The notes under the pieces: generated by a model | The model's database searches: none | What the model saw: only the letters and a program-made list of their open reading frames with translations | Told to the model about the DNA's origin: nothing | Assembly (NCBI GenBank): GCA_022703585.1 | Contig: JAKLDJ010000001.1 | Coordinates: forward strand, 310,891 to 374,890 | DNA from: Candidatus Omnitrophota bacterium | Lineage (GTDB): Bacteria > Omnitrophota > Gorgyraeia > Zapsychrales > JAKLDJ01 | DNA length: 64,000 bases | Direction of reading: 5' to 3' | In this document: positions 4,001-28,000 of the stretch, piece by piece | Position numbering within the stretch: the stretch's first letter is position 1 | Layout of the letters: each line of letters begins with the position of its first letter | Position numbers and translations under genes: made by a program

Positions 4001-7000
4001 GATAAGCCTGCGTGCGATACGGATCAAAAGGCCTGTCTCGTTATACGCCGCATAATAATTCTTATCCTTAACCAGATCGACCATCCTGCGGTCGGCGGCA
4101 TAAATCCCGTCCACGATTAAAATCTGCCCGTTCTTAAGATGCAGTATTTCTTTCTTCTTGTCATTACGCTTTCCATCTTTAAAATCATACGGCCCCGGAA
4201 TCCAAGCCGGCCTTCCTTCAATAATTTTTGCGAGCGCATCAAGGATAAGAGGCCAGGCATAAGCATCCGGGGAATCAAAGTCGTATAAATAATCACCGGC
4301 AAAATCGTGGATATACTCTCCGGATGCGTCCTGAATCGGAAGTACGTCGGTATCGGGGTTAAACTTCTTAGGGTCGTAATGCTTAGGATGAATCTTGTTC
4401 TTAAAGAACCTGTCCATGGGGAAGATGGCAAATATCGCCGGTGCCATGTCGCAGAAAGAGTCGGCGGCGATTGATTTTCCGCTCGCCGTCGGCCCTGCGT
4501 CTAAGAATATATTAATCTCGTCATCCTCGGCAAATTTAAGAAGCCTGACGAGCATTTGATCGCGGCGCTTCATAAAGTTTCGCTCATAAACATTTCTTTC
4601 CTTCTTGGAAGGCTTGAAATAATTCGGGTATTTAAGAATAATCGTTTTCATCTTCTCTGGAGATTCGCGCCCTAAGAGACCGACATAATCATACAGGTCC
4701 GAATAAAATTCTCTGGCCTCGCTGGGCGCCCTTAAGTCATAGAGCTCGAGCATATCGATAGAATTCTCTGTCTCGCTGATAATCGCGAAGGACCGGCCAT
4801 TGTGTTTGAGGATATAATACCGCTCTTCATCAAGCTCCCCGTGGATAATAGGCAAGTGCGCCCGCCGGACATCATGGATGCTGATCCGGGTCTTAGTATA
4901 ACCCGAAGGGCTCCCCTTGTAATCAGGGATTGACAAAGGCAACGGATAACGGCCGTCCGTCGGGGTCTTGCGATGATATCCGGCCCCCGGATAGGGCATG
5001 CTGGGTATAAAGGAAGGCCTGGTCTCGGGGTTGATAGCCACAACCGCATTGTGCAGCCGTATGTAGGGCTCTGTTTGCCGGGTGATTTTCGCCAACTCGC
5101 CCCTGCGGGTAAGCTCGATAACCGCATCATAGAGTTCACGTTTGATCTGGCGAGTAACCATCAGCCTCCTAAGCCTAATGGTGACAAAATCTTCAAAAGA
5201 TAAATAATAACCGTTACGGTAATACGGCCGGGAGAAATCAAGGTCAAGGGAATCGGCTATGTAAAGAATTTGTAATAACGGCCTCAAACGGCTGCCTAGA
5301 TGCAGATTTTTACTGTTGAGTTTGTGGTGCACGGAGGCCAAAGTAATGGCGGCTTCAATCGTATCATCGACACGCGCAAATACTTTACGAGATTTGACGA
5401 CATCGATAACGAGTTTTTGATGTTTCTGCCTTAAGGAGTCGACTTCCTGCCGTCGCATCAAATGCGCCGAGCGCAAATCTTTTTGCAAAGATTTATGAGC
5501 CTTGCCAAGTTCGTGAATAAGGGCGGCCAAGACCAGAATCCTCTTATCCTCTGTCCCCAGGTTAAGCTCCCGGGCTAACAGGAATGCTATTTTTGCGGTC
5601 CGGAAACATTGCTGCTTAACGCCGTCGATAGCGCCGGAATAGGCGTCTATAATTTTTATCAGAAGGCCTTCGAAAATACCCAACGGTCTCCTGCCGACCC
5701 CCTTGTAAGGGACATATCTTCTTAAGAATTCTAGGAATTCCGTTGCCTCCGCGCGCGCTGCCTCCTCTTTTGTCCCGCCAAAATGAATAAACTTGTGCTC
5801 TGCGGCTAAATCCTGGACCAGATACGACGTAGCCATCTTCAGGGCATCGGCCCTGGAGATTTCTCTGCCTTCCTCTCTCGCTTTCTGTATTTGCACCGCC
5901 ACTTCGGTTTCAATAGGGGAAGGATTTTCTTCAAGCATTTGTTTTAAAGTCGAGAGGGCGGCGTAAAGATGCGCATCCTCCGTTGCCGAGGCGAGATACA
6001 GGTTGATAATCTGCGCGGGGGTTAAATTAAGCCGGTCAACCAAAGAGTAAATAGCCTGTTCTGTTCTAAGCAAATCGGCTTCGGGGTGCTTGCGTTGCCA
6101 GTGTTTAAAATTATTTTGGGCGATAAAATCGCCAAACGTTTCTGTAAATAAGCTTGAAAGCCGATTACCGCGCGGCAGGAAAAACGGGAACAGACACATC
6201 AGGGACCCGTCTTCGCCCTGGCCCGGCTTATGATAATAGTCAACAAAGGAAATCTGGTCTTCAATGACCCCCACAACAGCTACAACCACTTCCCGGGCGT
6301 GAGGGCCATTGGCGCCAATGCGAATGATATCCCCGGGCATAAGGGATATAGACCCGTGTAAAGCGGCTATATTTTTCGCATCCGCTTCTCTGAGACCATG
6401 GAGCATGTAGACTGAGGTATCTATGAATCTTTCTGCGGCGACAGTAATATGGCTAAAGACCTTCGCATGAAACCCATGTTCGGTATAAATTTTTAACTCG
6501 GCAACCGCGTCAAATCTCCTTTTGTCACTTTCGCTGATTGTTCCAAGAAGCAAAATACCCAAAGCCATAACCTTCCAAGGCAATAATAGATCAAGCGGCA
6601 AGAGGAGTGCCCGAACCGAACCATCTCTATCCGATTCTGCCTTAGGCGAACGGGAAGCGGCCATTAAGTCCCTAATCAACCTGGGGATCCAGCCCCAATC
6701 AACACCAACAAAAGCACCGAGCTGCTGGCTGTCGTCTCCATCTTGGCTCTTGAGTTCTGCTAATTCCTGTTGCAAGTGCTTCCTGATCTTCTTTAAGAAT
6801 TCTTCAGCTGGCATGCCCGGATTCTCTATGGTGCCAATCACTTTCTTTTCCTTCTTTCCGGTCTGCGGATTAACTTCTTCTTTGGTCAAATAAGTCACCG
6901 GGGCTTCAGAAATTTCGCCTGAGGTCTCTGAATCAAATCCGCGCATATGAATGCCGTTGGGCCCGATCAAGACATAGGCGCCTTCACCGCCGAACTTTTT

Positions 7001-10000
7001 CGCCATACCCTTGTCGCATTCGAAATTGGCGTAATCACCGTCTTGCGTCATAAAGGCGGCCTTTAATTTGCTTAAGACATTGTGCCCTGTCAACCAATTC
7101 GGGACTTTAATCAACGACTGGATCCTGGCAATACCGATTCTTTCGCGATAGTATTTACAATGGTTCGGTTTGATGCGGGTTGTCGCGTCCGAATACCAGG
7201 AATTGACAAGATGAAGCGCCTCCCAGAGTGTGCGGAGCGGATAGCGCGGGTCTTTGATAACTCGCGAGATCGCCTCCAAGGCTGCAAAGATGTCCGTGCC
7301 TGTATACGCCTTCCCTCGATAAGTGATGATGATAGAGCCATCGTCTTCCACAGGGAACCAGCCGTGAGATAGCAGATTGTTGTAGGGGTCTTTTAAGAAG
7401 AGGTTGAAGTTTTCTCGATAGAAACGAGCCAAGGACTGCAGGGCAGGATTAGTCGGATAATTGGCCTGGGTGAGCTTGTTGTCGCCTAAAAGCATTGCGT
7501 TAATCTCGTCGATAACGGCAGTACCCCAGTCTTTATGGCTGGACCAATCTTTGCACCACCATTCAACCGAAGCATAGGCCTGGGTGTTAATGGATTCAAA
7601 GACCAGATACCACCACTTTCCTTCGGCAAGAGATTTTGATAATCGATCCTTAACTGCAGAGGTAATCGTCTTTGATAAGCCGATGGCCTCCTGCCAAAGA
7701 GCCAATTCGGCAGCATCAGCCCCGGCCTCTGCCCTGGCCCGGTGGACCTGAATCAGTTCCCGGACAAGCTCATTCCACCAGACGCCAGAAGTCTTGCCCA
7801 TACCGTTTAACCCTACAAAAGGATCGGGGACTTCAATGCGTTTGAAATGGCCGGCAAACTTCTCCCAGCTATCGAGTTGTTGACTATTCCACTGGCCGCT
7901 ATATTGTTTATACCCGTCGACAAACTTCTGGCGAAGAGTTGATACCTGGCCGCCTAAGAATTCCTTCTGGAATCTGTCCTGGTCTTCAATGTATTCGGCA
8001 AGGCGGGCAGTCCACCAGAGAAAATCATTCACGTTCTTAGGATCCGTGGCCCTCTTCGCTTTTACCCAAGCTTGCGCCCTGCGGTTAAAGGCGGAGAAGG
8101 CAGGAACAGGGCTATCGGTATAGAAGTTAAAGTTTTCATACCAGGGCAGATGAATACCAAGCAAGTTGCCAAAGGCCCAGAAATCATGGTTGCCGCTCAC
8201 ATAGAAGACTCTGTCGGGAGCGGTCTCAACAAGTTCCTTGGCCAGGTTAAAACATTTCATACCGTATTTACCCCTGTCCAAAAGGTCGCCATTTAAGTAG
8301 ATGGCCCCATTCATGGTCTTAAGAGACAGCCCCTGGATATTGAGTTGCTCTTCAACCGACATGTTGGGATCGATCTGGCCTTTGAAACCACAAAGTTGAT
8401 TTAAGGCATCGCTCAGGATAGCGGCAAATCTGGCGATATCGCCATGATAATCCGAAATGACAGCGATTCGCGGCAGGCAACCGCTGCCGGGTTTCTTTAA
8501 TTCCTTACGGATCTCCCTGAGAAGTAATTTAATTTGCTTAATGCGTTCTTTTGAATCAGCCTTGTAGATAAAGCCGATTTGTTCATAGGTGTCTTCCTTG
8601 CCGGAGAGCGTCCCCAGTGACATAAGCGGCAACCCGGCCAAGAGCAATAGTTCAAAGGCCCCGAATAGGGTCATCGCCCACAGCTCATCACCGCTTCGAA
8701 TGCCGGTATCGCCTTTTTGCGAAAGCGACGATTGTGCCGTCATCATAAGGGGGCTGGAAGGCTCGCCTGTCTCTTCGAGGGCGATGGTCATCAGGCCGCG
8801 GGAGTTCAATCGCGCTTTATAGCCTAAGCGAAGAAGGACTCTAAGAATTCCTTTTAATAACAGGTCACTGTCGGCATAACGGCCATTCTGTTCCTCTTCA
8901 ATCTTTTTCAAGTCCTCAAAGAAACGTTCAAGATACAAATTCCGTAATCCCTGAACATAGAGATCCCTGGCTGCTGCATCTACGTCCGGGATGACATACC
9001 GGATACTATCTTTAGACACACCGGGCCGATAGTTAAACTCACGAGGAATCAAGCGCCCGTTTTTCTTTTCATATTGAGCGAAAGACGATTCCGAACCCAG
9101 AAGCAGCCGTCCGCCTTCTCTTAAAGCACGGGTGAGCGAGAGCCAGAGGCGATCCCGCTCCCAATAATTCTTATAATGAACCACAAGATTCATGACGCGT
9201 ATAAGGTCGACACCCTGGGGATATAACCGAGCCAAAGTATCAAAACTGCCAAGATGAATCTTGGTATTCGGGATTAAATTCAAATGCCCGTCCAGATATT
9301 CCTGCGCAGCCCCGACAATCCACGGGTTATTGTCAATGCCTATAAGCTCTATATCTCTATTGCCGAGTCTATTACGTAATTCAAAGAAGGTCGGCGAAGA
9401 AGCCTCACCCGGCGCGCCCGGCACAGAACCAAGCCCGACATCGGCCATGCGCCTGACTGTTCCCGTTGATTCCATCTGAGGAATAAGATGACCAATCATA
9501 TATTGATCAACTGAAATCAGCCGCATGGGTTCTGTATAGGCGAGAGTCACGCGTCCCCGGCCTTGCACTAAGCCGGCCTGATCATTCAGGGCGCCTCTTA
9601 CCGTTCCCAGCAGGAATATGAGGCCAAGGCCGCTGATGTCAACCATAGCGCGCAGGTCACCTTCAGGCTCATTGGGTTGACCGGCTGAATCGGGGACAGT
9701 CCCCGCTTCGGCGGGCCCGGCCTCGGTGAGGCCCAGCAGGGCCGAGGCGGGGACTGTCCCTTCTTTCAAGGATTTCAGCGCCAGAATAATCGCGTACGGC
9801 CAACCGTTACTGGAATCCCAAAACATTGCTCGGCAACGGTTCCTGATTTCTTCCCGGCTAACCGTTTGCGGATCAAGCCCGGACAGTTTAATACCGGCAA
9901 TCGTCACGCTGGATCTTCTGGAGTTAAACACAAAATTCCGAGGCGTGAGGCCGTGCACATCGACTCTATTTTCTATTAATCGTTCGATAAGCGTATTCAT

Positions 10001-13000
10001 CAGGGTGATTTCAACGGCATTGAGCGAACGCCGGTTAAGGACATCGATAATAGATTCCTCCCGGCCGGGGATTTCCGGTTTTGGATTTATGTTGCGCGAC
10101 CTACCGGAATTTAATATTGATGTTCGCGGCCTGTCGCCGGGTCTGGGTGCAGATTTTCCTGCGATGAGTTCTTCCCGGCCTATATGCCACTGACGCTGCC
10201 TGTCGGGATTTAATACGCGCGGCTTGTCGCTTGTAAACACAGATTCTTTTCCGTCTACATCAATGACGACTTGCGCGGCATTCGCAAGGACAACCGAATT
10301 AGCATCGCCGACAGAAGTGCCGGTAGATTCGCTCCCGGCAGCCTCCCGGTCAGAATCATCCTCTTTTTCTTGAGCTTCTTCTTGCGCATCTCTTACGGAA
10401 ACAACAGGAGAACCGTAGCTTCCCATTTGGAAGAATAAGTGGTTTTCAGGGAAGCCGGGTTTATTAGCGGCGGCTTTTAATTTTTCAACTAGGTTTTCCC
10501 AACGTTCTGCGGAGGCGATAGTTTCAAGAACGATGCCAATATGGATAACCTCTACCTCTTTTTCGCTGAGAATCTGAGCAAGAGAGTCAAGAGCAACAGC
10601 CCGTTCTCTCGCATCCTTAAAAGGAGCAATAACCTCAAGGATGTCGTGAATAGAGACGCTGTTCATCCCTATACGGGTGAGGGTGTTTTTAAGAGATCGG
10701 CGGCTGGCGGCATCTTTTACAATGATAACAGCCAAATGCATCAAGAGCGCCAGCGCTATTCCACCCAACAATAAAGCGGAGAGAACAACAACCAGCGGGG
10801 TAAACACGTGGAGGTCATCAGTAATATCGATTCCATACTTGGCAGCACGGCTGACGGCGCGCAGGATTTCTTTTTGGGCGCGCTCGATTTCCTCAGGCGG
10901 GCACGGACGCTCGAGTAACTCAAAATAATAGCCAAGCTTCATCCGCGTATTTTGCTCCAACCGCCTTGCCCATTCAATTTTGGCCTCCTGGCGTATCGCG
11001 TTTTCGATAGCCCTTCTTTCAAATTCAACCTCGGGAGAATACCGTTTAAACTCGGTTGCCGTCAGGGAATCAATCGTGGATGTGCCGTAGTACTCTGAAC
11101 GCATCGTATATCGAAGAATACGGAATATTTCCCGGGCGCGGTCTTTCTCGCCGGGCAAATCACCTATCAATAAAGCGGCAGCCTGGAAGTTCAACTGAAC
11201 GTTAAAGATATTTCCTATTGTTTGACGGGTATTATGAATAACTTCAATAAGATTTTCGTAGATAGCTTCGGGGGCGTAACTTGTTAATCCGATCAGGATA
11301 CCGTCCGGCGGCGAACGGGCCAGGTAAATACGGGAAAAATCGCGGCCAAAAACCTTGTTGAATTCTTTGGTGAAAGTAAGCAGCATGGCCTTAAATAAAT
11401 CATCGGCACTGTTATAGCCAACGGCATAATTCATGCCGTGGCCGCCGACGGAATTCTCTGGTCCCAACGCCTTAAGCGGGCTCTCCAGCGCAGGGTTTTC
11501 CCTCACTAATTCCTGGATAGGCCCGTAGATATAGCGGGGATTGAGCAATAAAACGACGGCGTCGTTCGGCAATTTATCCTGGGCAACCCAGCTAAACCAT
11601 TCGCGGCTCCCCAGGCGCCTAACCAGGCCGTCTCTATCCTCGTCTCTTCTGCGGGGAACAGGATAAGTGCCTTTGCCTCTTTTGCTTTCTTTCCCTGCCA
11701 TTTTGACCAGCCGAGACAATTTTAGCCTGCTCCTGGCGCTGAGCACAAACTGTATCAAAGACTCTGGCTGCAATTCCTCGGGAGTACCCATCCCGTAATC
11801 GTCTTTGCCAAGTTTCTTGGAAATAGTTTTAATACCGGCCTCAGCTACGGTGATGGCGGCGTTTAATAACTGAACAGCCCGCCATCCCGAAATCTTCATG
11901 CCCGCCGGCAGGAGAACATCATCGGAGAGATTCACCGCCCAGAGAGAATGAGATATCTCTATGCCGCCCTCATTGCCTGCACTGCGAATCTCCTCTAACA
12001 TCTCTTTTAAAATCTCTTCTACTGCGCGGGCATTCTCGGCTTTTAGGACCACAAACTTTTCATCGCCCCGGTCATTCTTCCAGATCACCCAGCTTTGCTT
12101 AAACTCTTCACTCTTTCCTATTAAAATTTTCCCGACACGGTTGAGAAACCTGGTTGTCGCTTCGTCCCCGTAAAGGTCGTTGGCCACGCTTACATCATTA
12201 CCGTCCAGGACAATAAGGTAGAGCCGGTTAATTTCTTTTCGGTTTCGGTTGATGAACTGTATCGCGTTATTGCGGCCGTTATGCTGATTTTCCAAGTTCT
12301 CAACCTGGGCCAAGGCGACAAAGGCAAAAGCCATGTTTGCCGCAGCCATGAGTGCCTCAAGGCCGGCAAAAATACCCCCGGCCGGCAGCAGGGCAGCAAC
12401 TTCACCGTCCTCTGCCCCATTGTCCGCAACGCCTTGCGAAATCGTTACGTTAAGCGGTATTTGTTCTTCTTCACCTTGCGCCGCTAACAGCCTTTCCCGA
12501 AGAATATCCACAATAGCCATAAAATCAAACGAGGGATAATAAGAATATTCGGTATAGTATTTCAACGCCGCATCAATAATTTCTTTTGACAAAAGAATAT
12601 TCATGAGAGAACGCGGAACGCTTTCAACGAAAATAAATTTATACATGGGGCCAACTCTATGCGAAGAGACCGTATTAAACACATCCCAGAATAAAAAGAG
12701 CAATTCTATCTTCGTCATTAAGTCTTCCCTTGAGAAAATAACCTCTTCCGCTGCTTCGTAAGTGGCGACTTGTATCTCCTTTAGTGAAGGATCGAGGCTG
12801 AAGGCAAAAGCGAATTGATCTTCTTTAGCCACCTTTCTAAACAATGACTTTCCCTTGAATAAATGCCTCGCCCTCGGGCTCCCCAGTAGAGCGAATACGG
12901 TTTCCTGGAAATTCTCCGGAGTGACCGTCCGACGAGGATACTCGGAGCGGACATCGCAAGTCGCAAATTCACCGGTGGCAAAGTCCAGAAATGGGCTAAA

Positions 13001-16000
13001 ATTACAGGTGACGGCTTCTCTGCTCATACACATTCTCTTATAAAGATCCTCCATGCTGCGATCTTTCGGGACCATTCTCCCTTGTCTTCTGGACAAGGTA
13101 GCCGCCTGAGAGGTATAAATCCTGGCCATTCTCCAATTCGTATCACAATAACGTCCGGTTAATATACCGCGATAGCCGCCGGTTATTTTCTTTTCTATAT
13201 TTCTTAAGAAAGTTTTCCAAGCGTCATACGCCGGGGCGGGCTGATCAACCAACACATCGTGAGAATAAAGCACAAGATTCTTGAGAGTCGCAAGCGGAAA
13301 TATCTTTCGAAAGGCCTGTATGACCTCCGCCATCTTTTCATAAATCAATTCTTCGTTTTGCCCCAACTTGGCCGCAAATCGTTTTACTTTATCGGTGTCC
13401 CAGCTTAAGACAACTTGGATATCATTCCCAAACATGTCTTTTAGCCTGGTAAAGAACTCTTCGACTTGCCCCGGGGTACTTTGGATAAACCAGAATCCGT
13501 GTGTGATAAAACCGAATGGGATCTGTTGATCTTTGCACGCTTCGGCTACGGCCCAAAACGATTCAAAATCATCCAGCGTATCTTCACCCGCCAGGTAAAT
13601 CTTGGCGAAGCCCATGGCAATAATTTCACTAAGGATACCGGAAATATATTGCCTCATTTCCGCTTCCTTTAGGGCTATGGGTTGATGTGTGCTTAATCTT
13701 GCCGCTAACGCAGCACTTTTTGCGTAACAATACGAGCAAGCCCCCGAGCAATGTGTCCTTGCCTTCGGATGAGAGGAGTCAATCTTGCGGTTATTTTGTA
13801 TGACAAAGGTTCCTTCCTTCGCAGGAACCGATAAATCTCCTGAATAAGAAACCTGCGCTAATAATTTCCTAATTTCCGATATGCCGGCCCCTAAGGAAAT
13901 CATTTCCCCTTCTTCCTCAACCCGTCCGGAGAGGAACACTGCGGTAAGAATCACGCTTAAGCTATTCGCAAATACCGGCATCACGGCCAAGATCTCGATA
14001 ACCGGCAGCAGGGCACTGACTTCACCGTCCGACGAACGGCTGCCTGTGCTCTTCTTGCCGTCATGCACGGTTGGTGTGAGCCTTTGATTGCTCTCTTTTA
14101 AACCGAGCAGGGTATTTTCCGCTTCGTCAATAACCTCGATGATTTTAAAGGTAACTTCGGCAGGCCGGGAAAGAAGCTTCTCCAAAATAACACTGTCGCA
14201 CAGCATGCGCCTTACCTCGGCCACGACAGCTTTGGTGTCAATATCCTGCCGGCCTAACCCCTGCCTTCGCTCCTTAGCCGCCCGGCTGGTCCTATACCAG
14301 TTCAGTTTGTTGTCAATATCTTCAAACGCTTTCAGCGGTTTACCGACCCGGTCCGCCAGGTTCTTGGTATTTCTCTGGCCAATATATTTATTCATCAAAT
14401 TCTTAATCACCGCGCCGAAGGCAGGACATTGATTCGCGGCCGCCAGGACCCTATCCACTAGCTCTTTATCGAAAGCGACACTCTTTAAAAGTTCCGGCAA
14501 GTCCAGTTCATAGCTAGCGTCCACCCGAACTTTTAAGTCCCTTAAAGCGAATCCGGCTGTCAGAAGTTTGAAGCTGATACTTAAATACAATTCGCTAAAG
14601 TCATAGATGATAACATCCGGCGCTTTCTTTTCCCCTCGCTTGACCGAACTTGTGACTTGCCGGGTGGGAAATAGTTTTGAGTCAATCATAAAATCATAAA
14701 TGGCCTTTTTTGCCGCTTCCGGCAGGTTTTCAACCGGTCCGCGGCGCAAAAGAAGCTCCAGGGCTTTCTTTCCACGTTCAAGACGATTCCTCGAACCGGA
14801 CGGCTCGAGTTTTTCGGTAATCTTTAATTGAGCCCTTAAGGACTTGGCCCGGCTCTTATCCTCCACGCTGATCATCTCCGGCGTTAATCCCTGGCCAAGA
14901 ACAACATTAAGCACCACACCTGTTTTTAAGGGAATATCCTGCCGCCACAGCTGGCCTTTTTCGATGCCCGGCACGGTAACCGGGCTATCCGTTGACAGCA
15001 TAAATCCGGAATACTTTTCGTCAATCCTCACCTTGGGGTGAAAAGCCAGGTCATAAACCGAAGCGCCCCAGGGTAATTCAATAACAGAAAGCGTATCCGT
15101 CACTAAAACCACGAAAATTCTTTCGCGCTTCATTTCGGCTTCGTAAAGTTTTTTAAAGTTCTGTTCGGCGTCGCTGCCCAGGCCCAGATCGGCAGGATCG
15201 GCCTTAAAAATCTGGTTGAACCCTAAGGCATTAAGGATGCCTTGTAATTTGTATAACCAGTGGGCCAAGGTGACGCCATTATGATCCTGGTATCCGTAGC
15301 GGTATTTAGCATAATTCTCATGATCCATGACTTGAATTTCCCAGGGCCTATTGTGGCTGTCCCTGTAGGTGATCCGTGCGGATTTGTAGTTCTTTTTATC
15401 CTGGGGAGTGCCGGTAAATTCGGCATACGGCCTGACGCCTTCGGCAGAAAGCTCTTCCATGACCCGGGTAAAGGCCCTGTCATAATGATTGGCAATGATC
15501 ATGACCCTTAATAAATCATCCAGGGCGGCAATGGATTTAAATCTGGGCTTGCGGGATGACATCGCCTTTTCATGCGTACCCCAGATGCCTTTCATGTTGA
15601 CTTCAACGGTCGTCGGTGTTTCTTCTTGAGCTGACGTCCGCATAACTCTGCGCCAACGAATCTCCTGGCGTCTGAGCACCGGTTTAAGTTCTGCTAATGA
15701 CCTGACATCCAGAACCTTACACATGATAGCCTCTGTTGTCCTGAACTGCAGGTCATTGTCAATAGCAAATACCCGGTCTTGCAATTCTCGGACGATCGCG
15801 TGAAAACCCATTCTTTGCCAGAGCGGGATAAAGACATGCTCCATTAATCCGATAACAGCTTTTTTCTTTGATTTCTCGACCCTGAATAAGTTGCAGTAGG
15901 CATCGCAAGACGCGAGCATCCTGACCCTGGGATTGCCCTCGGTTAACTGCAGAATCATCTCCATGTAATTCGGGACGGTATCGTCGGTTCCAAACGCCTG

Positions 16001-19000
16001 GATACGGCCGTCAATATAGACATTCTCGGCGTTAATGATCCTGGCCTCAAGAATAATTTCGGACATTAACCGGATATCCTTTTTCCTCTCCGGTAATGCC
16101 CCGGCCAAATCTTTTAAGATAGCCTTCCGTTGCTCATTGGTAATCGTAGCAGCATGCAGTAAAGCGGCGGCAATAACAACATCATCGCCGCCCCATCCGG
16201 CGAGGATCTGGGAAACCGTCAAAACATGTCTTACGGTATTTCTGTCAATCAAAGAGCCTCTAAGAAGCCTGTGAGTCTCTCTGATCAATGCGGGATCTAC
16301 GCCGGGATACTGGCGGTTGAATTTCTTTAATATTTCGGAGATGCTCGGCGAACTTTCTATCCGTCCCGCCAGCGTCATCCCTAAACTAAGCATGAGCCCG
16401 AGAAGTTCAAGGCCGGGGATAAGGGCCGTCATGGATTCCCCGTTATTTTTATCGTTTTCAAGCAGGGATTGCGAAAGAGATGCGTTGGCGGCCCGCGCAA
16501 ACTCTACCCGGGCGTCAAATTCATCAAGATAAATGGACGACGCCGGCAAGACAACCGGGCTGCCGGCTACTACTTTACCTGCTGTCGGATAAATCTTAAT
16601 AGCCGTCACCTGCACCGGAGTGCCGCGATGATAGATTTTAAGAACAAGGTATCCGCTCATCCTGACGCGGGGTTCGGACTCATACATCCTGACATCATAC
16701 ACAATCGTCTCGCCGGCTTTGATCGTGCCTTGCTTCCCAGCGGCATCGGTGATAACAAAAATCGAGGTTGTCACCATATCAATCGCGGCGTTGGCCACAG
16801 CCGGCACCGGTACAACGCTTTCGCCTTGAGGTGTTCCCGCAATCCGCGCTGACTCCGCCCGGGCATCAGAGAGGTCAGTATACAAACACTCCATCGACAG
16901 CCAGGGGCCGGTTTTAGTTTGAATCCGGACCTGGCCTTCCACAAGTTTGATACCCGTAATCACAAAGGTGCCGATGGCACCGTCAGAAGAATTGACAAAA
17001 TAAGTCTCGCTGCCCACAGAAAGGGTAACCAATCGGCCGGCTTTATCAGTGAGCGGAGCCGACTTTACGGAAACTAAAGTTAACCAACGCAGAGAATCGT
17101 TTGGATTGATACACAATTCATTAAGGGGATATACGCCGGCAGCGGTCCCGGCATATTCGGTTTCAATAAAGACCTGCCCTTCTCTAAGGAGAATGTTTTT
17201 AATGTCAAAAGGAATGATAATGCTTTTCTCATCGCCCGAACGGCTGGCTAAAGCCTCGCGCGAGTGGATTGCCCTATAAACCTTAATGCCTTTTCCGACA
17301 GAAAGAGGAATTGCTCGTCCGGCCTTGTCGGTAAAGAACGTGGTTTCTTTCCCGGCCAAAGCCTGCTGCTTGGTCATCCGGGCAGATTTATTGAAACGAA
17401 ATGCCGACGACGCGAGAGCCGCCAGCGCACCTAATACAATTTTAATCTTTTTGAGAGAAATCAAACGGCCGGTTGATTGAGCGGTAACGGCAGGCATCGC
17501 TACCGCCGGTGTGTCGACTGCGGCAGGCGCGGGCTGTGTCCGGACACCGGGCAAGCGCAAGTGACCGAAATGATCGCTTTCCCTTACAGGCTCCATACTG
17601 ATTTTCCTGGCAGCTGCCATGGCATCATTAACATCAAAGAACAGAGAATACGGATGCAAAATGACCGACCTGCGGGTTTTGGCTTCAATGGCCTCGATTC
17701 TAATCGTATCAAAATTATAAATCGCCGTGATAATATAATCGCGAACCTTGGAGCCGCGGACAGGTTCTTCGGTATAAACAACACCATAAACAATTCTACC
17801 GACCCATACCTTATCTTGCTTTCCGGCGGCATCGGTGATGGAGAGTTCGTTCTCGGCAAATGCCAGCTTAGATGCCCCTGAACTGTAAGAAATTTCTTCC
17901 CGGACGTCCTGCTTGGACTCATCCCTTGATCCATCCTTGCGAGAAGACATAAACAGTGCCAGCGATGTGATGCCGAGCACAATTCCCGCAACGAGAGCGA
18001 TGATTCCGGAATGATTCGTCGCCGGTTCATTCACGACAACTTTTTCCGCTTCCGCGGCTTTGGCCGGGGCTTTGACCACGATTTCTTCCGCAAATTCTTC
18101 AGCGACTTGGACCGGGGCCTCGACCGAGGCAGCGGTTTGGGCAGGCTGCGCAATGGTAATTTTCTGGCCGGCAAAAATACGGTCCATGCCCTCGCAAGAT
18201 ACTGCACCCGTCGCCTGTCGCCAGAATTCGCATACTTTTCCGTTATCGCCCCAGAGCCGGCCTACAGGCTTGCCGGTTTGTTTTAAGTAATCAACGGTGA
18301 TCTCGCCCCAGGTATCATTCTTTTCAACAATAATCTCCTCGATCCGGCCGGTTTCGTCGCGGACAAATTCCGCGGCGCGGGCCGTGGACGGCGCGGTAAA
18401 GGCAAGCGTAACCAAGGCAAATAGTACGGCGAGAGACAATTTCAACTTATTTTTGCTGAAGCGTAAGTTGGTACCGAATCTAAATGCACGGGACGCTTCG
18501 ATATTAATCTTGGAATCCCTTGTCACTTTTCCGGAATTTTCTCTCAGGGAATTTTCAAACTCCTCGACATATTTAGAGTAGGCATAAACCGGCGATCTGG
18601 CACCGTTAACAAAACGCACGGAAATGCCTTCCCGCCCGAACACTTCGAATATCTCTTTTATCTTGTGCGCAATCTCTCCCTGCGAAGGTTGATAATCAAC
18701 CATCCCCGAAGGTACATGGCTCGCCCCGGCTAATCTGCGGGACGTGAAATAATCCAGATCAAAACTAAGGATCACTCCGTTTCTAAATACTTCTTTGTAG
18801 GCTGCGATAACAGCAGCAATATCTTCCGTGATGAAACAGAATGCGCTTGTTTCCCCAAGTAACATGCGCCCATAAAATGGATGGATCCAGAAAATATCCC
18901 CAACAAGATTAAGTTTCTTGATGTCAGTTACCCAGCTGCCACTCCAGCAAAATAAAGGAGCATTGTCACTGTGCAAATCAAAAAAGACAACAGGCAGGCC

Positions 19001-22000
19001 CCGTGGGATTTCACGATTAACAACAGCATCTTTAATGTCACCGATAATATTCTCATGCTCATCGTGGATCGCAACGGCTCTGAGCAGCCTCTTAAAATTG
19101 AAGGCCGCCTCGACTTTCTCAATTCCTCCAGCCACGGATGGAGATTGAGTTGTCGAGAGCGGCCTGTTGATTTGTCTTTGGCCCGTCAATCCCGCCTGTT
19201 GGCGGGGTTGACGAGGTCTCGTCATCCCGTCGTCTCGTCGGGATGACGGATCTTTAGTCTTTAGTCTTCGGTCTTTAACGGCTTTTAGCGCTAAATACGT
19301 CACAATCCCTGCAATCAAAAGAATGCCAAGCGCAAAAGCAATTTGAGCCAAGCCGACACTGCTCACCCCACTCACACCTAAAGCAAACGGCGTGACAAAC
19401 ATCGGCATGGGGTTAATGCCTTTAAGACCTTCCGGCCCCTTGGGCGCTTCGGGAATACTGGCCGGAGCAGCCGGGAGTTGCGCCTCAGGCGCCGGAGCCG
19501 GCATAACAGGATTGCTGACACTGCCGTCGGCGGAAGAAGCGGACTGCCCTTGGTCGACCTCGCTAAGAGCATTCAACCGCAAGACTAATTTTTCGACAAA
19601 ATCCATGATCGCAAGATTAAGCGTCATTTTATCGGATAAGTCGGAAAGGCTTTTCATTTCCTTCTTGAATAAAACAATCCGCGACCTGACGGGCCTTAAG
19701 TAAGGGGTGTGTTTAATTCTAAAGATGCTTTGCAAATAATTCAATATGTCCCCTTCGCCGTGAACGTTATAGGAATGGAAAGATAAAACCCATGTGCCTT
19801 GCGACAAGGTGCGAATATACTTAAACCCTTCGGCAAAACTCTTTAATCCGGAGCCGCTTCTATAAATTTCGACATTCTCATCTCGCGCCGGATCATGTTT
19901 ATATCTCCAGGTAAATCCGGAGCCGCGATGGGACAGCAAATCTTGGGCCTGCTCTCTGGTCATGGAAATAGTATTAAAGAATTCTTCCAGCGTCTGCCTT
20001 TGTTCAATAACGGCGTTCCATATCTTTATATGAGCCCGGGCCTGGCCCCGTTCAATATCCACCTTGGGCGAAGAAGCAAGGGCTTCAAACATACCGGTCG
20101 CGCGCGTTTCTTTTGTCCGGTATATTTCCCCTAACCAAATAAAACTATTCATCAGGCTCATAACCGACGGCCTTCTTCCCCCCATGGGCTGACGGCTGTA
20201 TTCGTTGGCGGAATATGCCACCAAATACCCGTTTAAGATCCTGAACTTACCTGACTTAAGGCCATCAACCAGGGCATCGTGTGCTATCCGGGGAGCAAAA
20301 ATATTTACCTCTTGGCCCTCTTGATCAACAATATTAAATAATTCCGGAATGGCCCCGCCCCAGACGCCGATCAAAAGCGCTCCGTTGGGGAGTGCCTTCA
20401 TCATGAAGGTGGATGAGGCCTCAAGAAATTCATCGGATAGCATGATCGTAGCGGCAACACCCCGGGCAATAATCGGGGCTTCATTGATATTGTAATTTTC
20501 GATAAAGGCCATTTGATTTTCCAGGCCATGCTCTTTGGCAGCGGCCTTGAGACCGTCAAAAAGGGCCCTTCCGCCATATTCAAATATGCGTCCGCCGATA
20601 ATTAACCGGCTATTCGAACTCTTAAAGTCTCTTAAGAAATCCTCGTTTTTAAACAACCTGAGCATCTCAGCGTATTTATCCGGCCCTTTGTAGGCAACCT
20701 GTCTTCTGACATTAGAGACCATAGGATGCGTTAAGACGGCATCGCGAAGGGAGCCGAATTGGGCGTCGATTTGTTTCCAAGCGGATTCATCCTGGGCCGT
20801 TTGTCTCAACAACGTCCCATAATCTTCGTAAGCCTGGCGGATATTTCCGTCATTAAACGCTGTCCCTTTAAGCGTTTCCTCAAGCCAGGTGGAGCCGCCC
20901 ATATCCTGAGTTTGATTATCTTTAAGCCACAATAACAATCCCAGGGCATAAAAGGCCTTGATGATTTCAAAGCGGAACTTAAATTCCTGGAGCAGCGGGG
21001 CATTTTTGTCTTCTTTTAAGGCGGCAAATAACACGCTGTCACTCTCTTCGAGGGCAATGCCTAATTTTGCCTTGAAACTATTGATTAATTCGCGGGTTTC
21101 TTCTGCCTGCCATTGATCGAATAGGGCGCCGTTTGTGCTTCGGAGTCCGCCCTGGTTATAACTGCGGATTTTGTCCCGATAGAGCGTGAAGACTTCCGTC
21201 CCTAGAACAGGCGTGTGCTCATAAACACCAACGCCGGTAATGACATCGACTGTCTGGCCGACGTATTCGACCATATCAATAACGCCGCCCCGGATGATAT
21301 AAGGCCTTAAAGCTTCCTCAAACCGAAGCATTTCATAGGCATAGGCAGGCGGCTGGTAGAGGCCCGGCTTCCAGACCGTGTGGTTGATATGATGCCGGAC
21401 GGCTTCCGGGAACAGATATTTGGGGCCGCTGACAAAAAGTTCATTCTCGATAAATAAGATGTTGGATTTGGCAAGGCCCCGGCGCTGCAATTCCTTAAGA
21501 AGCAACTGGGACATCTCGTTATAAACCGCCATATGGACAACCCGGTAATCGGAATCGGGGTAGAGCTCATCAAAGATATAAACTTTCTGATCCCCATCAA
21601 AATAATAGGCATCGCCGTAATAAAGCGGCGCGCGGCCGAATTTTGTTTCCGCGTAATAGATGTCCGCGTAAATCGTCTTACCAATAATCCTCTTGGAGCG
21701 AGGGTCACTGGCATAATTCTTAAACACATGGTCAACCAGGTTAAAGGTCAGAGTAATATCCGTTTTGACCAGGATCTCTCTTAACGCGCTGCCCAAAGTT
21801 TGGCCTTCGGGTAACGGCGGCAGGTTGATAACGACGCCCTTGATGTCATTGTTATACAGCGGATGAATCGCGATATTGTCAGCGCCATTCTTCTTCCAGC
21901 CGACCACCAGGTCGTGCATGAGGGCCCCCAAGCCGCCGGTCATCGTCAACTGGGCGATAAAGCTGGTTAACCGCCCCACCCTTTTTTCTAATTTATCCAG

Positions 22001-25000
22001 GAGCCCGCGGTCAATTCCGGCCTCAAACTGCAAGCTAACAACAGAATAATCTTTAAGCGCCGGCGCCTCCCGCTCAAACCAGGAAAGCCCGCCCATGACC
22101 GGAAGGAAAATCAAAGGCAGTAACGCAAACGGCATAAACGCGCCGAGATATTCAGAACTCTCCCCTTCGACCGCCCATTTCTCTTCTTCGGTTTTATCGA
22201 GCAACCATTCCTTGGTTATCCTTAGTCCTTCTTCCAGACCGGTTAGGTCGCTTAAAGATAAGTTAAATACACGTTGCATGCGTGTCGTATCAAAGGTCAA
22301 GGCTGGCGGAACCACAAGCCCTAGACTCCTCATCTTTTCTTCGCTCATCGCCTCAACCGCGACAGGAGAATTTATGACTTTCTTGATTGCCAAAAGAAGC
22401 CGCTCTTGGGTAGTCGAGGCAGGGTCGGCCACGATAATAATCCGGCCGGAATCGGTTTGCTCGCGGCTTGCAGCGGCCGTGAGCAGTTTAATCAAGTCGC
22501 CGACATAGATGTAGCTATTTTGCCTGCCCGGAATAAATGTCATGCGTGCCTGTCCGTCGGCCCGGGCCATTTCCCGTATGAACTTGGGAACGACCCGGTC
22601 AGTTTCATCACCCGGGCCATAGACATTAGCAAATCTAAGAGCCTGGCCATGCGATGAATCGACAACAAACCGCTCAGCCAAAAGTTTTGTCAATGAATAC
22701 AGCCCAGGGCCTTTACTAAAGGCAGCGGGCAAAGATTCGGACGGGGACAACAACCATGCGCCCCTGTGCGTCATTTCCGCTAATATGCGATCCCGTGCCT
22801 GCGCGACAATGCCGTAATAGCGCTCCAGCAGGTTCTCAGTATCCGGGAGAAGGTGCAAATCGGCCTCGGTAACAACGCCTTCTTTTATGGTGCCCAGTTG
22901 ATAGAAATGCACCGTCGAGGCAAAGATAAACCGTTTGTTTTGCTGGCCTGCTAACCGGGCCAGAACGGCGGTGGAAACCGCGTTAACCGCGAGAGCCTGC
23001 TCGGGGCTTATGTCTCCTAATCCGCTCCAACCGCCCAGATGGAATATCACATCACTGACGCCGACCAACCGATCCAGGGCCTCGGCATCGGTCAAGTCAC
23101 CTTCGATAAGACGAACCCTCGGATGGCCGGCAGCCAATTTCTGCCGCGTCGCGCCGTTGGTCTTTCGCGCAAGCAGGTGCAGAATACCCGTGTCGGATTG
23201 TTTCAATAATAATCGGATAAGCTGTGAACCAACGGCACCCGTCGCGCCGGTAATGCCGTAGTTCATCTTTTTCTCTTCCTTAACCATCGCCGCCAGGGCG
23301 AAGAAGGTTGTCAATATCTCAAAACCAGGCAGCACGAACGCGCCGAGGCGGCCTTCGCCGTCATCCTCGTCTCCCTCGACCAAGGCCCTTAGGTCAACCT
23401 CCGAATACGCCGACATCCTGGATAAGTCAAAGATGATGTTGCCCTCCGACTGGGCCGTCTCGGCGTTTTCGAACGCGAAAACCAGCATCCCATCGGCCAG
23501 GCGGACATCAGTGATTTTCGAATTCTTAAATTGCTGAATAATCCTATAAGGAAACGCCTTAACCATGATTTGAGGCAGTGTCTCCCGGGCCCTTTGAGCG
23601 AGTTCTTCGGAGGTAACAAACCGGTGGCTGATAAAGTTTCCGCCAGTACCTCTTTCGCCGCCGACCACCGGGACCATATCTCCGACAAACCCGACAAAAT
23701 CCCTGAAATAAAACATGGCATTGTAGCCTGCCTTGGCCAGCAATATGAGTATGGCGATGGCAATGTCCCGGCGCTTCGTATCCGGAATCAAATCCCTTAA
23801 ACTCTTCTCGTCGTAATTTGAGGCAAACAGAGTTTCGGTCAAGGCCGCCAGGTCATTAGTAAGAACCCATTTTAGGGCAGCCGCCAAACCATTCGCATTG
23901 CCGGTTACTACTTCATGCATAAAGCTCTTGAAATAGGTCTTAAAAGCGGCATATTCACTATCGGCATTCCAGCCCCGGAAGCGATCCCGATGATGCTGTT
24001 CATACGTTTCCAGGAGAAAATCGATTTTTCTGCCGTAGGTACTCACCGCGTAAAAGATAGCGGTTAAGAGCACACCCTTCATGAAAGAATAATCATCGCC
24101 ATTGGTTAGGCTGTGCAATTCATGCATCAAATCGACCCTGAAGCCGTCAACGCCCAAATCGATAAAGTAGTTTAAGTAGTCGGAATAAATCTTTGCCCAA
24201 TATTCTCCCTGGTCTAAATCCGGATATAACTGATCCTGGGCTTCGCCGCGGTAATAGACAAAAGCCTTGCGGCCGTCTTTAAGGTGCAGGATAATTCCGC
24301 CTTTATTCTCTTGGAATATAGCCTCATCACTCGTATCAATGTCATAAAGTTCTTTGCGGTGAGCAAAATAACGATAGTTGTCTTCAGTCAAAGCCTCCGG
24401 CGATAACCAGGGTTCAAAGTCGACAATAACTCTTTGGCCGCGCGCCTGGACGCCCGCGATAATATCTCTGACGTCTTGCTCGGGATAAACCAGGCTCATA
24501 TCCGTTCTGGAGAAGAAATTACCGTTGCGCTCAAAAAGCCGGACGAGCTTGCCTTCATAAGAAACAATCTGCTTCTTCGTGGGATAGCCGATGACCATGG
24601 AAACGGTTGTGCCGCCCACCCTTAATGTCAACAGGATGCGGCAAGCTTCACCCCCAAAATGTTTCGCCTCAAGAATCTCTGTATCATCGCCTATATCAAA
24701 GTCCTTTTTTCTTTCCTGAAGATACGTTTTCAGATCCTCATCCTGCACATGCCTCATCTCTTCATAATCAAGGCCATGGACAAGCCGGGATGTGTACGAG
24801 GTTTTAAGCAGTCCGAATAGATACATCGTGGCTTTGATGCCGGTTCCTTTTAATAAATCGGCAATGCCGATGATATCGCGAACGGCCTTGGCCGGATGAA
24901 CGGTTAACTCTCCGGCCTGGTTGATCTCTGTTGCCGCGTCGAGAGTATTAACAATCAGTGTCAAGCCGCCGTCTCTTCTTAAATCGGCTACAGATGCCGG

Positions 25001-28000
25001 CACAATTCCTGTTTCTGCTCTTGCCAGAAAAGCAGCGGCCAAAACCGCATCTTCTGCGGGCTGTATTCTTTCTGCCCTGGCCGCGAAATCTTTAATCTCC
25101 GCAAGCCCTTCTTGTCTATCGCCGTCTATCGCCGCCAAAACCATCATCGGCACCAATGCCAGCATTTCGAATCCGGGCAACACGAACGCGGCGAGGGTAT
25201 CGTCTCCACGGGTTGTCGCATCCCCGGTTTCAGAATTGAACCAGGTGAGTATCCTGCGCGTCTCTGCTTCGCGTAACCGTGTCGACAGCCATTCCCGGGC
25301 CATAACGGGGTGCTCAATACGGAATTGCGCTGTCTCGGGTTCTTGAGCCAACTGGTTGATCTCGTTTAATACTGCCTGCGCATCCGTCATCAGGCGAGCG
25401 GCAATCTTGTCAATCTTTGCCGTATCGTCAGCCGCTGTCCCTTCGATAATTGCTTGACGGAAATGCACTGCCATGCGCATGGCTTCGTAGGCAACACCTT
25501 CTTGGAGAGTATTTTTATGGTCAACCAAGGATTCCAGGACGAGAATCGTGGCAGCCCCGAGGGAGCGAATGAGCGGTTCAAGGGTCCCTTCCAATCGGAT
25601 ACGGTAGACAGGCTTGTCACCGCCAAGTTCTTTGATGAGAAAGTTGATAAATTGGCGCGGGAACTGATAGATGCTATAAACAGTTTGGGCGGTGGCTATC
25701 AAATCTCCCAGGCTATCGGTATCCTTGCCGGTACGTTGACGATAAATACTTTTGAGTTCACCGCGCAGCATATCAATAAAATCATTTTCCACGGTGATGG
25801 CGATCGGCAGCTTGCCGGTCAAACGAATTTCCTTATAAAGAATGCGCTCAAACATCAGCCAGGCATGAAATTCAGCAAAACCCTCCATAAGCCAATGGAA
25901 TAATCTGTAGGCCTGTACGTTCAGACGCGGCTGCAAGGCATGATGGCGTTCGTGCAGCATAACCCAGGTCAGCCGAATGGGATCCGTAATCGTATCGTTA
26001 ATAAAATGCAGGTTTCGCGTGTCCCCGTTACGGTCGGTAATGGCCAGGAAGTGCCCTTGCGGTGCCTCGTCTGCATCGTCTATCAACGTCAAAGCCTGGC
26101 CTAAGGGTGTGTCATAGTTAAACAAAATAACGTTATACAAATTCATATGCCGCCTAAAGGCGCTGTTTAAAATGTTGGTAACGCTTCTTAAGACTTGCGT
26201 TTGCTGCGCCGTTGGGGCAATCGCTTCATCATTGATATGATGAATGAGCGAAATCACTTCAAGCACATCGCGGCTGCGCAAGTTATCCAAAAGCGCGACC
26301 ACTTTCTTTAATTCCGCTAACCGTTTTTGTTTCTCGACTAACAAACCATTATCGATCCGGGGATTCTTAAGATAAGTTTCTAATTCACCCACGCGATCGC
26401 TCCAGTATTCATAGTAGCTGTCCAGCGTCCCTTGCCGCTGCTCATTGCCCTCCGCCATCCCCAAGATCGGCGCTAGGGCGAAGAATAATAAAGGAAGGCC
26501 CGGCATAAATGAGGCGAGGACTTCGGCGCCGGATCTGTCAAAATTGCGGATTGAAGCAGCAATCAAATCTTTTGCGCCATATCCACTGTTTGCCTCAGCC
26601 GCATGGGGAAGAACATCCAATATCTCCTCCCAAAGTTCCTCTATGTGACCGTTTTGGATATCGGTAATACCATACACCTTATCCAAAATACCGGGTGCGC
26701 GCAGGCTTTCCCTTAATGCGCTTCTGACGCCACGAGCACCATATCCAGCATACACTAACCGGTGCCACTCATTCTCTTTCTGTCTAGTCACGAAGATACC
26801 TCGTGCGGCATTCAACGGAAGATCCTCATAAAAGATAACCTCGGTACCAACATTCTGGGCCAAGCCATGGTTGATTCTGCTCAAGGCAAAGGCCCCATCA
26901 TAGGCCACCAGCATCTTTTGCTGGCTCGTGCTGGCGGCAAAACGCTTCAGGGCTAATGAAGGCCGCATGCCAAAATAGATAGAACCGCGCGCCACGGTCC
27001 CGAGCCGATATCGTTTCAACTGGTCTACCGTTTCCTCGATATGGCCATTGGCATCTATACCTCTCGATCGGGCAAGACGAGCCAACCGATTTTTAATTCT
27101 CAAGAGAGTATGACTTTTCATTTTGGTCAACTCGTTTTCGGAAAAGCCAAGCAAAAGATGTCTAAATTCATCTTCAGTCAATTCAAAATCGGCCAAAAGA
27201 AGTTTCAGCCGGTCTCGATTGATCATAAGAGGATCACTGCTTAATTTTCTCTGAAGGATAACAACATCGGCACCATCATAAATACCGCGGAAGATATAGC
27301 CGTTTTTGGGTTGGAGTTGTTTGCTGGCATGTATCATACCCAGAGCCGGAAGGCTCATAAGTAAAGAAAAGACCTCCACGCCCGGCACAAACGCGGCGAG
27401 GGTGTCGTCTCTACGGGTTGCATCGTCCTTCCTGTCCCTATCATAAACCGCGTCAAGCATGTTCTTCAGTTGCCGAAGCTCCCGCACTCCCTCTAACAGC
27501 ATGTTCAAACGGGTAAAATTCCACAATACGATAACTTTGCATGTGAAACGCTGGATACTATTGAGCCTTTCGTCCTGGCAATTCTCTAACAGCGTCAACA
27601 AATTCCCCAGCTTGGTCTCTGTTCCGCTAAAACTGGTCAGGATCCTGCCGCAGAAATCATCTTCATCCCGGGCTCCTGTCCAATTTTTTCGTATCTCAGG
27701 GGTCCTGGTTCTGTCTTCAATCATTCCTTTACGTAAAGACGCGCAAAGTTCCCGGACTGCTTTTTGGTAGGCGGTGATCTCTTCTCTAATTTTCTTCGGT
27801 TCAAAAAATAAGAATGTGGTCAGAACGATGGCGAAATAACGGATATCGTCAATCACATTGACAACGCGGTATCTTATCCGGCGCGACAATATTGAAAGCG
27901 CAAGCGCGATCCCCAGTATTGCCGGCCAATAATTTTCAGCAAGATTGACCTCCCGGTCCATACCGAAAGCATTCGGAGGAAGAATCGCTGCTATCGTGAT

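Follow-up and report, generated by a model that had tools for sequence, protein, structure and literature searches.

The stretch of DNA analysed here, referred to below as the window, comprises 64,000 nucleotides of a Candidatus Omnitrophota genome (contig JAKLDJ010000001.1) and is a fragment of one giant open reading frame (ORF) of a gene longer than 64 kb. Deep inside this frame lies a segment that resembles a Sec signal peptide. We conclude that it is probably an internal Sec-type start-transfer signal, namely the first helix of a conserved anchor module that would act as a hairpin staple in a giant multi-pass membrane protein. The module consists of a helix, a LysM-like loop and a second helix; it is undescribed and apparently restricted to one phylum, independently of whether the chain is cut at the signal-like site. 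Coordinates below refer to the window and, for features of the giant protein, to its minus strand; amino acid (aa) numbers count from the first codon of the fragment.

The giant reading frame occupies positions 2..64000 in minus frame 0. None of its 21,333 codons is a stop and it is open at both ends of the window, whereas each of the other five frames contains 672-1,487 stops in a six-frame count. The earlier view that the frame is unbroken for thousands of codons thus stands. Its translation carries hydrophobic segments and Pfam domains throughout, and a canonical n-h-c signal with an AxA site had been pointed out within it by the first-pass annotation, which left the strand unstated. We located this element exactly. 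Translation of 18200-18802 on the minus strand gives precisely the peptide flagged earlier (...SKINIEASRAFRFGTNLRFSKNKLKLSLAVLFALVTLAFTAPSTARAAEFVRDE...), and the flagged segment itself, at 18374-18463, reads RFSKNKLK-LSLAVLFALVTLAF-TAPSTARA|AEF. The n-region RFSKNKLK (18440..18463; aa 15180-15187) has a net charge of +4 and holds a TTG leucine codon at 18443-18445. It is followed by the h-region LSLAVLFALVTLAF (18398..18439; aa 15188-15201), a 14-residue hydrophobic core that forms helix 1 of the module, and by the c-region TAPSTARA (18374..18397; aa 15202-15209), which has Pro at -6 and Ala at -3 and -1. These residues make up a (-3,-1) site, ARA|A, in which the predicted cut would come after A15209, between 18374 and 18373, and the residue at +1 is not Pro. 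An AlphaFold2 (AF2) model of a 118-aa query shows a helix over K13-F31, and models the c-region as a coil with a low predicted local distance difference test score (pLDDT).

All three parts expected of a signal peptide are therefore present: a basic n-region, 7-15 hydrophobic residues, and small residues at -3/-1 with a helix breaker near -6. In contrast to a Sec signal peptide cleaved by signal peptidase I (SPase I), the segment is not N-terminal, as 15,179 in-frame codons lie upstream and a starting Met is absent. A strict scan for the n-h-c plus AXA pattern returned one match in 21,333 aa, the flagged site itself; such regular-expression and cassette detectors are crude, and chance estimates obtained from them are rough. 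Conservation of the element in eight other sequences nevertheless shows that the resemblance to a signal peptide is more than a chance match.

These sequences were recovered in two ways. An exhaustive phmmer search of 1.84 billion representative proteins, with 1,200 aa centred on the flagged site as the query, produced 33 matches, three of which (P0018, P0030 and P0031) extend across both the signal-like helix and the domain behind it. Profile scans added further loci, L006-L009 from genome contigs and L010-L013 from metagenome contigs. The four in genome contigs all come from Candidatus Omnitrophota metagenome-assembled genomes, and every taxonomically labelled homolog of the module belongs to Omnitrophota, so that the module is apparently specific to this phylum. 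Of the contig scans, only those with profiles succeeded; single-sequence scans of the genome and metagenome contigs gave no matches. Word-indexed protein searches with the local 300 aa, profile A1 or an L011-type module were also empty and missed known relatives too. The window sequence itself, as DNA or as local protein, was absent from the genome, metagenome and protein collections searched. A scan of viral contigs for the module was also negative.

Nine instances of the module were compared, comprising the window copy, P0018, P0030, P0031 and L007-L011. Seven of the eight other carriers are ORFs or ORF fragments of several thousand aa. In L007-L011 the frame of the module is open across the whole 12-kb locus, which amounts to at least 4,061 aa in four cases; the fragment in L009, limited by its contig, has 1,529 aa. 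The only carrier of normal size is P0031, a 941-aa protein in an ordinary gene neighbourhood with a strong AAAGGAGG Shine-Dalgarno (SD) sequence before its annotated ATG; here the module is the second, internal hydrophobic segment, 96 codons after the start. As a separate observation, the first 120 aa of P0031 (L001 8595-8960) contain tandem signal-like segments at aa 14-30 and ~97-113, the latter with a KKDAKAGPSSR flank, and the charge flanks of the two predict conflicting topologies. In P0018 (L005, GCA_014382045.1 JACNKL010000043.1), inspection by eye shows the helix and the first eight domain residues twice, at aa ~468 and ~690 (SSPLFSSLNKLYLTAGIFLFNLIYTAKAVAAHFITDK), the second copy continuing into unrelated hydrophobic sequence.

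All nine instances share a common plan: a short helix, a small-x-small site, a domain of ~75 aa, a linker, a transmembrane (TM) helix that is longer than the first in most cases, and a K/R flank. Helix 1 carries the signature S-x-N-[KR]-x-Y-L-T-A-G-I-F-L-F in most instances. Its hydrophobic core is mostly 14-16 aa long, with two shorter cores where an Asn breaks the run, as against mostly 16-23 aa in the second helix. By eye, the residues at -3 and -1 are small in all nine instances, the sites being ARA|A, AVA|A, ALG|A and SFA followed by A or F, and six of the nine have Pro at -6. Among five divergent members, identity is 38% in the helix and 41% in the domain, which indicates that the resemblance to a signal peptide is conserved and the helix a stable element of the module. 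The domain of the window copy (18143..18373; aa 15210-15286), supported by alignments A1-A3 and by an AF2 model, gives way to a flexible linker rich in Ala, Pro and Glu (18011..18142; aa 15287-15330); the homologs have Pro/Thr/Ala-rich sequence of varying length at this position. Helix 2 of the module, SGIIALVAGIVLGITSLALFMSS (17942..18010; aa 15331-15353), is a 23-residue TM segment with a conserved N-H motif before it, and is followed by the charged flank RKDGSRDESKQDVREE (17894..17941), clearly K/R-rich in the homologs.

The unit is also mobile. According to blastp, aa ~15173-15290 are the only region that the window protein shares with the eight other carriers, and the alignments to P0018, P0030 and L008 continue through the helix into the domain. 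What precedes the module differs from carrier to carrier. In the window protein, a distant UPF0489-like domain with FDLHSD...SFDLDYF motifs (18452..19090; aa 14971-15183) stands directly upstream of the flagged helix, while the upstream neighbour is a GT1 glycosyltransferase in P0018 and Gly/Lys-rich low-complexity sequence in L007-L011. The UPF0489-like domain itself also occurs in many proteins of 1-7 thousand aa, usually without a TM segment after it (phmmer matches P0001-P0006, P0010, P0017, P0024, P0026 and others); Pfam UPF0489 scored below threshold in all four members tested (E 7e-5 to 0.56). Because the module is the sole shared region and its upstream domains differ, we read it as shuffled between contexts. 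On sequence grounds this argues for a giant gene of mosaic origin, and the movement of the module between giant proteins is direct evidence for the assembly of giants by module shuffling.

The charges around the two helices suggest how the module may sit in the membrane. The 15 residues before helix 1 contain four K/R and no D/E; two residues of each kind follow helix 1, and one K/R and three D/E precede helix 2. The preceding TM helix, LAQIAFALGILLIAGIVTYLAL (19286..19351; aa 14884-14905), appears to run out-to-in, and the flank after it, KAVKDRRLKTKD (19250..19285), is K/R-rich with six K/R against two D/E. Combined with the positive-inside rule, which is well established, this pattern would leave the 280-aa UPF0489-like loop in the cytoplasm, take helix 1 in-to-out, place the loop of the module in the periplasm and bring helix 2 back. 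The domain content of the protein points the same way, since a chain that combines periplasm-type (Peptidase_M23) and cytoplasm-type domains (UDPGP, epimerase, HPr) requires internal export and stop signals. When the ribosome reaches helix 1, the K/R-rich n-region would stay cytoplasmic and the helix would insert in-to-out via SecYEG/YidC. The 120-aa loop, composed of the LysM-like domain and the linker, would then be translocated to the periplasm until helix 2 stops transfer and the chain returns to the cytoplasm. The resulting hairpin staple would display the loop in the periplasm and pin a mostly cytoplasmic multi-enzyme chain to the envelope. Under this proposal, the signal would never have marked the beginning of a gene in this protein, which would explain why it stands in frame with neither a start nor a stop. 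The module thus offers a simple account of how giants may place small wall-binding loops outside and enzyme modules inside.

The displayed domain follows the invariant pattern D..G...LWG..G...E...M...G. When modelled by itself with AF2 (pLDDT 86.7, predicted template modelling score 0.76), it adopts a strand-strand-helix-helix-strand arrangement, corresponding to the beta-beta-alpha-alpha-beta order assigned to the module. The top Foldseek matches in the PDB are LysM proteins (Mg1LysM, the Volvox chitinase LysM, CVNH-LysM, CEBiP and LYK3) together with LysM-type baseplate proteins, and an earlier AF2 model that extended to the helix agreed with this. Pfam LysM matched one of the nine family members, below threshold at E=0.091. 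The LysM-like module expected after the signal is thus recovered in part, as a predicted fold in a probably extracytoplasmic place. The domain may bind glycan or peptidoglycan. Its window copy also contains two Cys residues, aa 15257 and 15269 (18185-18232), 12 positions apart in a protein with 0.3% Cys; the pair is not conserved in the homologs, and a disulfide would fit a periplasmic location.

Several observations weigh against the staple proposal or parts of it. The flank after helix 2 is charge-neutral in the window copy (five K/R, five D/E), and the extra N-terminal hydrophobic segment of P0031 would, as a membrane-spanning segment, reverse the parity. The orientation of the hairpin, in-to-out and then out-to-in, is itself deduced from the positive-inside rule and the domain types. 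As for the loop, none of the Foldseek matches is significant (all E>=0.4, with template modelling scores of about 0.34-0.46), and Pfam LysM (PF01476) does not match the window domain even at E<=10, let alone at the gathering score. The initial LysM-like assignment is thus only partly confirmed. In a search of PDB sequences with the domain profile (hmmsearch) there were no matches, and hhalign against a LysM sequence aligned only the V-x-K-G-D-T-x-x-x-I signature, at 3% probability. Pfam and NCBIfam scans of the local region likewise found neither LysM nor sorting-signal families (PEP-CTERM and LPXTG types). We regard the predicted fold as LysM-like, with membership in the family not established. 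Finally, the view of the staple as uncleaved is not secure, because a 14-residue core with Pro at -6 and AxA is predicted to be cut by SPase I.

That the peptidase also cuts ARA|AEF, in addition to the export of the loop, is possible but doubtful in our estimate, and such processing would be compatible with the export role proposed above. Equally tentatively, the upstream product would end in a TM anchor at its C-terminus, and the downstream one would be a type-I fragment beginning with the LysM-like domain. The core length, Pro at -6, Ala at -3 and -1 and the absence of Pro at +1 together mark the site for cleavage by the established (-3,-1) rules, and the c-region is modelled as a low-confidence coil. 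Engineered internal cleavage cassettes behind an N-in TM helix are cut by the E. coli leader peptidase. Small residues at -3/-1 are kept in all nine instances though the residues between differ (PSTARA, AKAVA, KVALG, PxxSFA). Only about 14% (10 of about 72) of the other in-to-out segments inside these proteins pass a loose cassette test, which also recovers the genuine signal peptides at the N-termini of related long proteins. Recurrent punctuation motifs in such proteins (RSExR, 22 copies in P0010 against 0.2 expected) fit processing as well. However, because the instances are homologs of one another, they do not provide independent cassette statistics, and P0018 and P0031 lack Pro at -6. The helix is as conserved as the domain, which is unusual for signal peptides that are removed and points to a structural partner that stays in the protein. 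Moreover, a single strict site in 21,333 aa could not alone liberate many modules: where a viral-type polyprotein has signals at its junctions, each with an ectodomain and a TM anchor, the window protein has one conserved junction, its sole strict site. A published re-analysis of V. archaeovorus proteomic data is too sparse to decide cleavage. Cleavage of giant Omnitrophota proteins has already been proposed, though only by C39/S8 peptidases, and neither processing by signal peptidase nor the helix-LysM-like-helix module is described in either paper (bioRxiv 10.1101/2023.11.21.568195; 10.64898/2026.06.07.730766). It is thus with reserve, as an unlikely case, that we raise the idea of the giants as true bacterial polyproteins cut co-translationally by their own SPase I at internal cassettes (ARA|AEF here, SFA|A in relatives). 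If so, membrane-anchored fragments would be released as from flavivirus polyproteins in the endoplasmic reticulum (ER), in what would be the first chromosomal bacterial example, and a direct handle would be gained on whether giants function as single chains.

The remaining explanations concern how the signal came to lie inside the frame. It seems rather unlikely that helix 1 is a relic that was once the N-terminal signal peptide of a separate LysM-like protein (secreted or type-I), entered the giant gene by in-frame fusion and now serves as an internal TM helix. Its appeal lies in the module being the sole region common to the window protein and eight carriers behind different upstream domains, in its resemblance to genuine N-terminal signal peptides of related proteins, and in P0031, a normal-sized gene that carries it about 100 aa from the N-terminus. 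However, the P0031 start is well supported by its SD sequence and lies 96 codons upstream of the module, which this protein therefore carries internally. A stand-alone homolog beginning with Met just before the segment had been suggested as a check, and none was found, either among the 1.84 billion representatives or by scanning genome, metagenome and viral contigs. The broader idea that the giant gene arose by in-frame fusion of many secreted or membrane proteins fares only partly better. Modules are indeed shuffled between contexts, but such a fusion predicts repeated signal/anchor pairs, and the window protein has one strict signal-like site against 13 copies of the anchor motif described below. 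We consider it very improbable that internal initiation at TTG 18443-18445 or 18437-18439 yields a separate secreted protein (MKLSLAV...). Two in-frame TTG leucine codons do coincide with the n/h boundary, offset by -2 and 0 codons from the start of the h-region, so the proposed check for GTG or TTG was positive in part; the SD-like motif sought with it is absent from the 75 nt upstream. Six of the seven readable homologous instances have neither ATG, GTG or TTG within 15 codons of the helix nor an SD sequence, whereas SD-like motifs precede 12 of 19 genes in an Omnitrophota contig comparison (against a 14% background) and 18 of the 19 start with ATG. Between 17800 and 19400 there is no promoter-like site or compositional break. 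The suggested liberation of modules by internal starts thus finds no support. As for a sequencing or assembly error that hides a stop and a start between two merged genes, we give it next to no credence and found no point in its favour. The stop counts of the six frames speak against it, the site is not covered by any other ORF of 150 aa or more, the homology with P0018, P0030 and L008 is unbroken from the helix into the domain, and the identical internal arrangement recurs in five independent assemblies. A predictor call of an ordinary TM helix, also named at the outset as telling against the signal, is not discriminating because topology predictors allow signal-peptide states only at the N-terminus, which is also why internal calls are suppressed in the 2026 preprint cited below. 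An internal start-transfer helix remains our preferred reading of the segment.

Three other signal-like segments were noted in the window protein. The first is a lipobox-like internal site at 32156-32263 (aa 10580-10615; FVRAIRNR-VISLLLTVMVALTPIAAPVLLVSLPG|CSDNPTKPVP), with LVSLPG|C at aa 10615 and a long hydrophobic stretch of 26 aa. When Cys positions are randomised, about 11% of trials contain one or more such sites, so that the site is not significant alone and was not relied on. Two weaker segments were found at 43550-43642 (aa 6787-6817; MAKKGGIRGGPAILIIAAALFAATVLFSTPLSSA|TV), which contains Met, and at 27962-28030 (aa 11991-12013; RDKLLRCLATAITIAAILPPNAFG|MD). Eight residues after the latter, a second TM segment with an RRIRYR flank completes a tight helical hairpin.

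Altogether, the window translation contains about 55-64 strongly hydrophobic segments, with Pfam domains scattered between them. These include Peptidase_M23, two copies of UDPGP, Glyco_transf_5 (a starch-synthase-like GT5) with GT1, HEAT, an NAD-dependent epimerase, Metallophos, HPr and HD, the enzyme domains being divergent. The Peptidase_M23 domain (LytM-type, peptidoglycan-directed) lies at 61247-61582 (aa 807-918). No TM segment is predicted between aa ~522 and ~4303 around it, which implies that a very large stretch stays on one side of the membrane; this TM-free stretch is probably extracytoplasmic. Two internal duplications were detected. A module of ~740 aa that contains UDPGP occurs at 41339-43561 and 33806-35959 (aa 6814-7554 and 9348-10065) and is a recent duplication with about 68-81% identity, while an older one relates aa 11435-11876 to 16707-17153 (28373-29698 and 12542-13882) at 34-49% identity. 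Both exclude the flagged region, and in a self-comparison the signal/LysM-like module was not repeated elsewhere in the window protein.

The recurring anchor motif occurs in 13 copies between 12290 and 39781 (aa 8074-17237), spaced 259-1,915 aa apart, as found with an iterative hidden Markov model. Each copy opens with an acidic/Gly lead-in, continues with L-x-A-F-[VLM]-P-G-x-E-x-[FL] and ends in a hydrophobic run of about 22 residues that has Pro/Gly inside it. Unlike a sorting signal with its basic tail, the copies are flanked by acidic or mixed sequence. The motif matched no NCBIfam sorting signals and is absent from related Omnitrophota giant ORFs. We rejected the 13 copies as C-terminal sorting signals of formerly separate proteins on account of their non-basic flanks, the lack of a signal-like segment after them and their absence from related giants; they could be re-entrant or monotopic anchors, or inter-module punctuation. 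A different inter-module motif, R-[SA]-E-x-R, marks P0010 and P0003, long TM-poor relatives that share the UPF0489-like domain. Besides the 22 copies in P0010, 11 are present in P0003 (0.1 expected) and none in the window protein. Lineage-specific punctuation motifs may be general in modular giants, possibly as protease sites.

When compared with known systems, the window protein resembles the giants described in Omnitrophota, whose ORFs reach 85,804 aa, and 147,155 aa in later work, and which carry from tens to 147 TM helices (bioRxiv 10.1101/2023.11.21.568195; 10.64898/2026.06.07.730766). Like those of West-Roberts et al. 2023 (bioRxiv 10.1101/2023.11.21.568195), it is a stop-free ORF of more than 64 kb, with at least 21,333 codons and dozens of hydrophobic helices, and it shares the scattered divergent sugar-metabolism, peptidase, HEAT and kinase-type domains as well as the long unannotated stretches. 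In particular, it matches the "multi-enzyme metabolic cluster" class (bioRxiv 10.64898/2026.06.07.730766). The "Archaeovorin" subtype (West-Roberts 2023) differs in having SecA_DEAD and C39/S8 domains, none of which occurs in the 21,333 aa of the window, beyond which the gene extends. Whether proteins of 20,000-150,000 aa function as a single chain or as cut pieces is an explicit open question in both giant-protein papers, and the module supplies a conserved, experimentally addressable candidate junction for it. The 2026 preprint (10.64898/2026.06.07.730766) suppresses internal signal-peptide calls as artefacts, and current pipelines thus discard them by design.

Relative to a cleavable Sec/SPase I signal peptide, the site has the same basic n-region, 14-residue h-region, and Pro at -6 with Ala-x-Ala, and it resembles the N-terminal signals of related proteins; it differs in its 15,179 upstream codons, the lack of a start context and a conservation equal to that of the mature domain. 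Viral polyproteins, such as those of flaviviruses (PMC6756788) and the bunyavirus Gn/Gc precursor (PMC7926653), with pestiviruses as a further named case, likewise have a signal-like helix in mid-chain followed by an extracytoplasmic domain and a TM anchor. Their cleavage is demonstrated and takes place in the eukaryotic ER, whereas for the module it is hypothetical. In our literature search no bacterial chromosomal precedent for cleaved internal signal peptides appeared, and all precedents found were viral polyproteins in the ER.

The loop domain shares with LysM (PF01476; intimin 2mpw, YkuD 4a1i, Mg1LysM 6q40) a predicted beta-alpha-alpha-beta core, V-x-K-G-D-T-x-x-x-I at strand 1/helix 1 and G-Q-x-I in the final strand; it differs by an extra N-terminal strand in some members and by an LWGxxG[KR] insert between the helices. 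For the module as a whole, a further parallel is found in MalF. The P2 loop of MalF, between TM3 and TM4, is a large periplasmic loop bracketed by start- and stop-transfer helices. Similarly, the module would combine an N-in helix that has a basic cytoplasmic flank with an exported loop of ~120 aa and a next helix that returns. In contrast to MalF-type loops, helix 1 is unusually short, with a core of 14 residues, and ends in a conserved signal-peptidase-type cassette, and the unit is a shuffled module placed in unrelated contexts. The protein that bears it is thus a giant of a known kind, and the module of helix, LysM-like loop and helix is undescribed so far.

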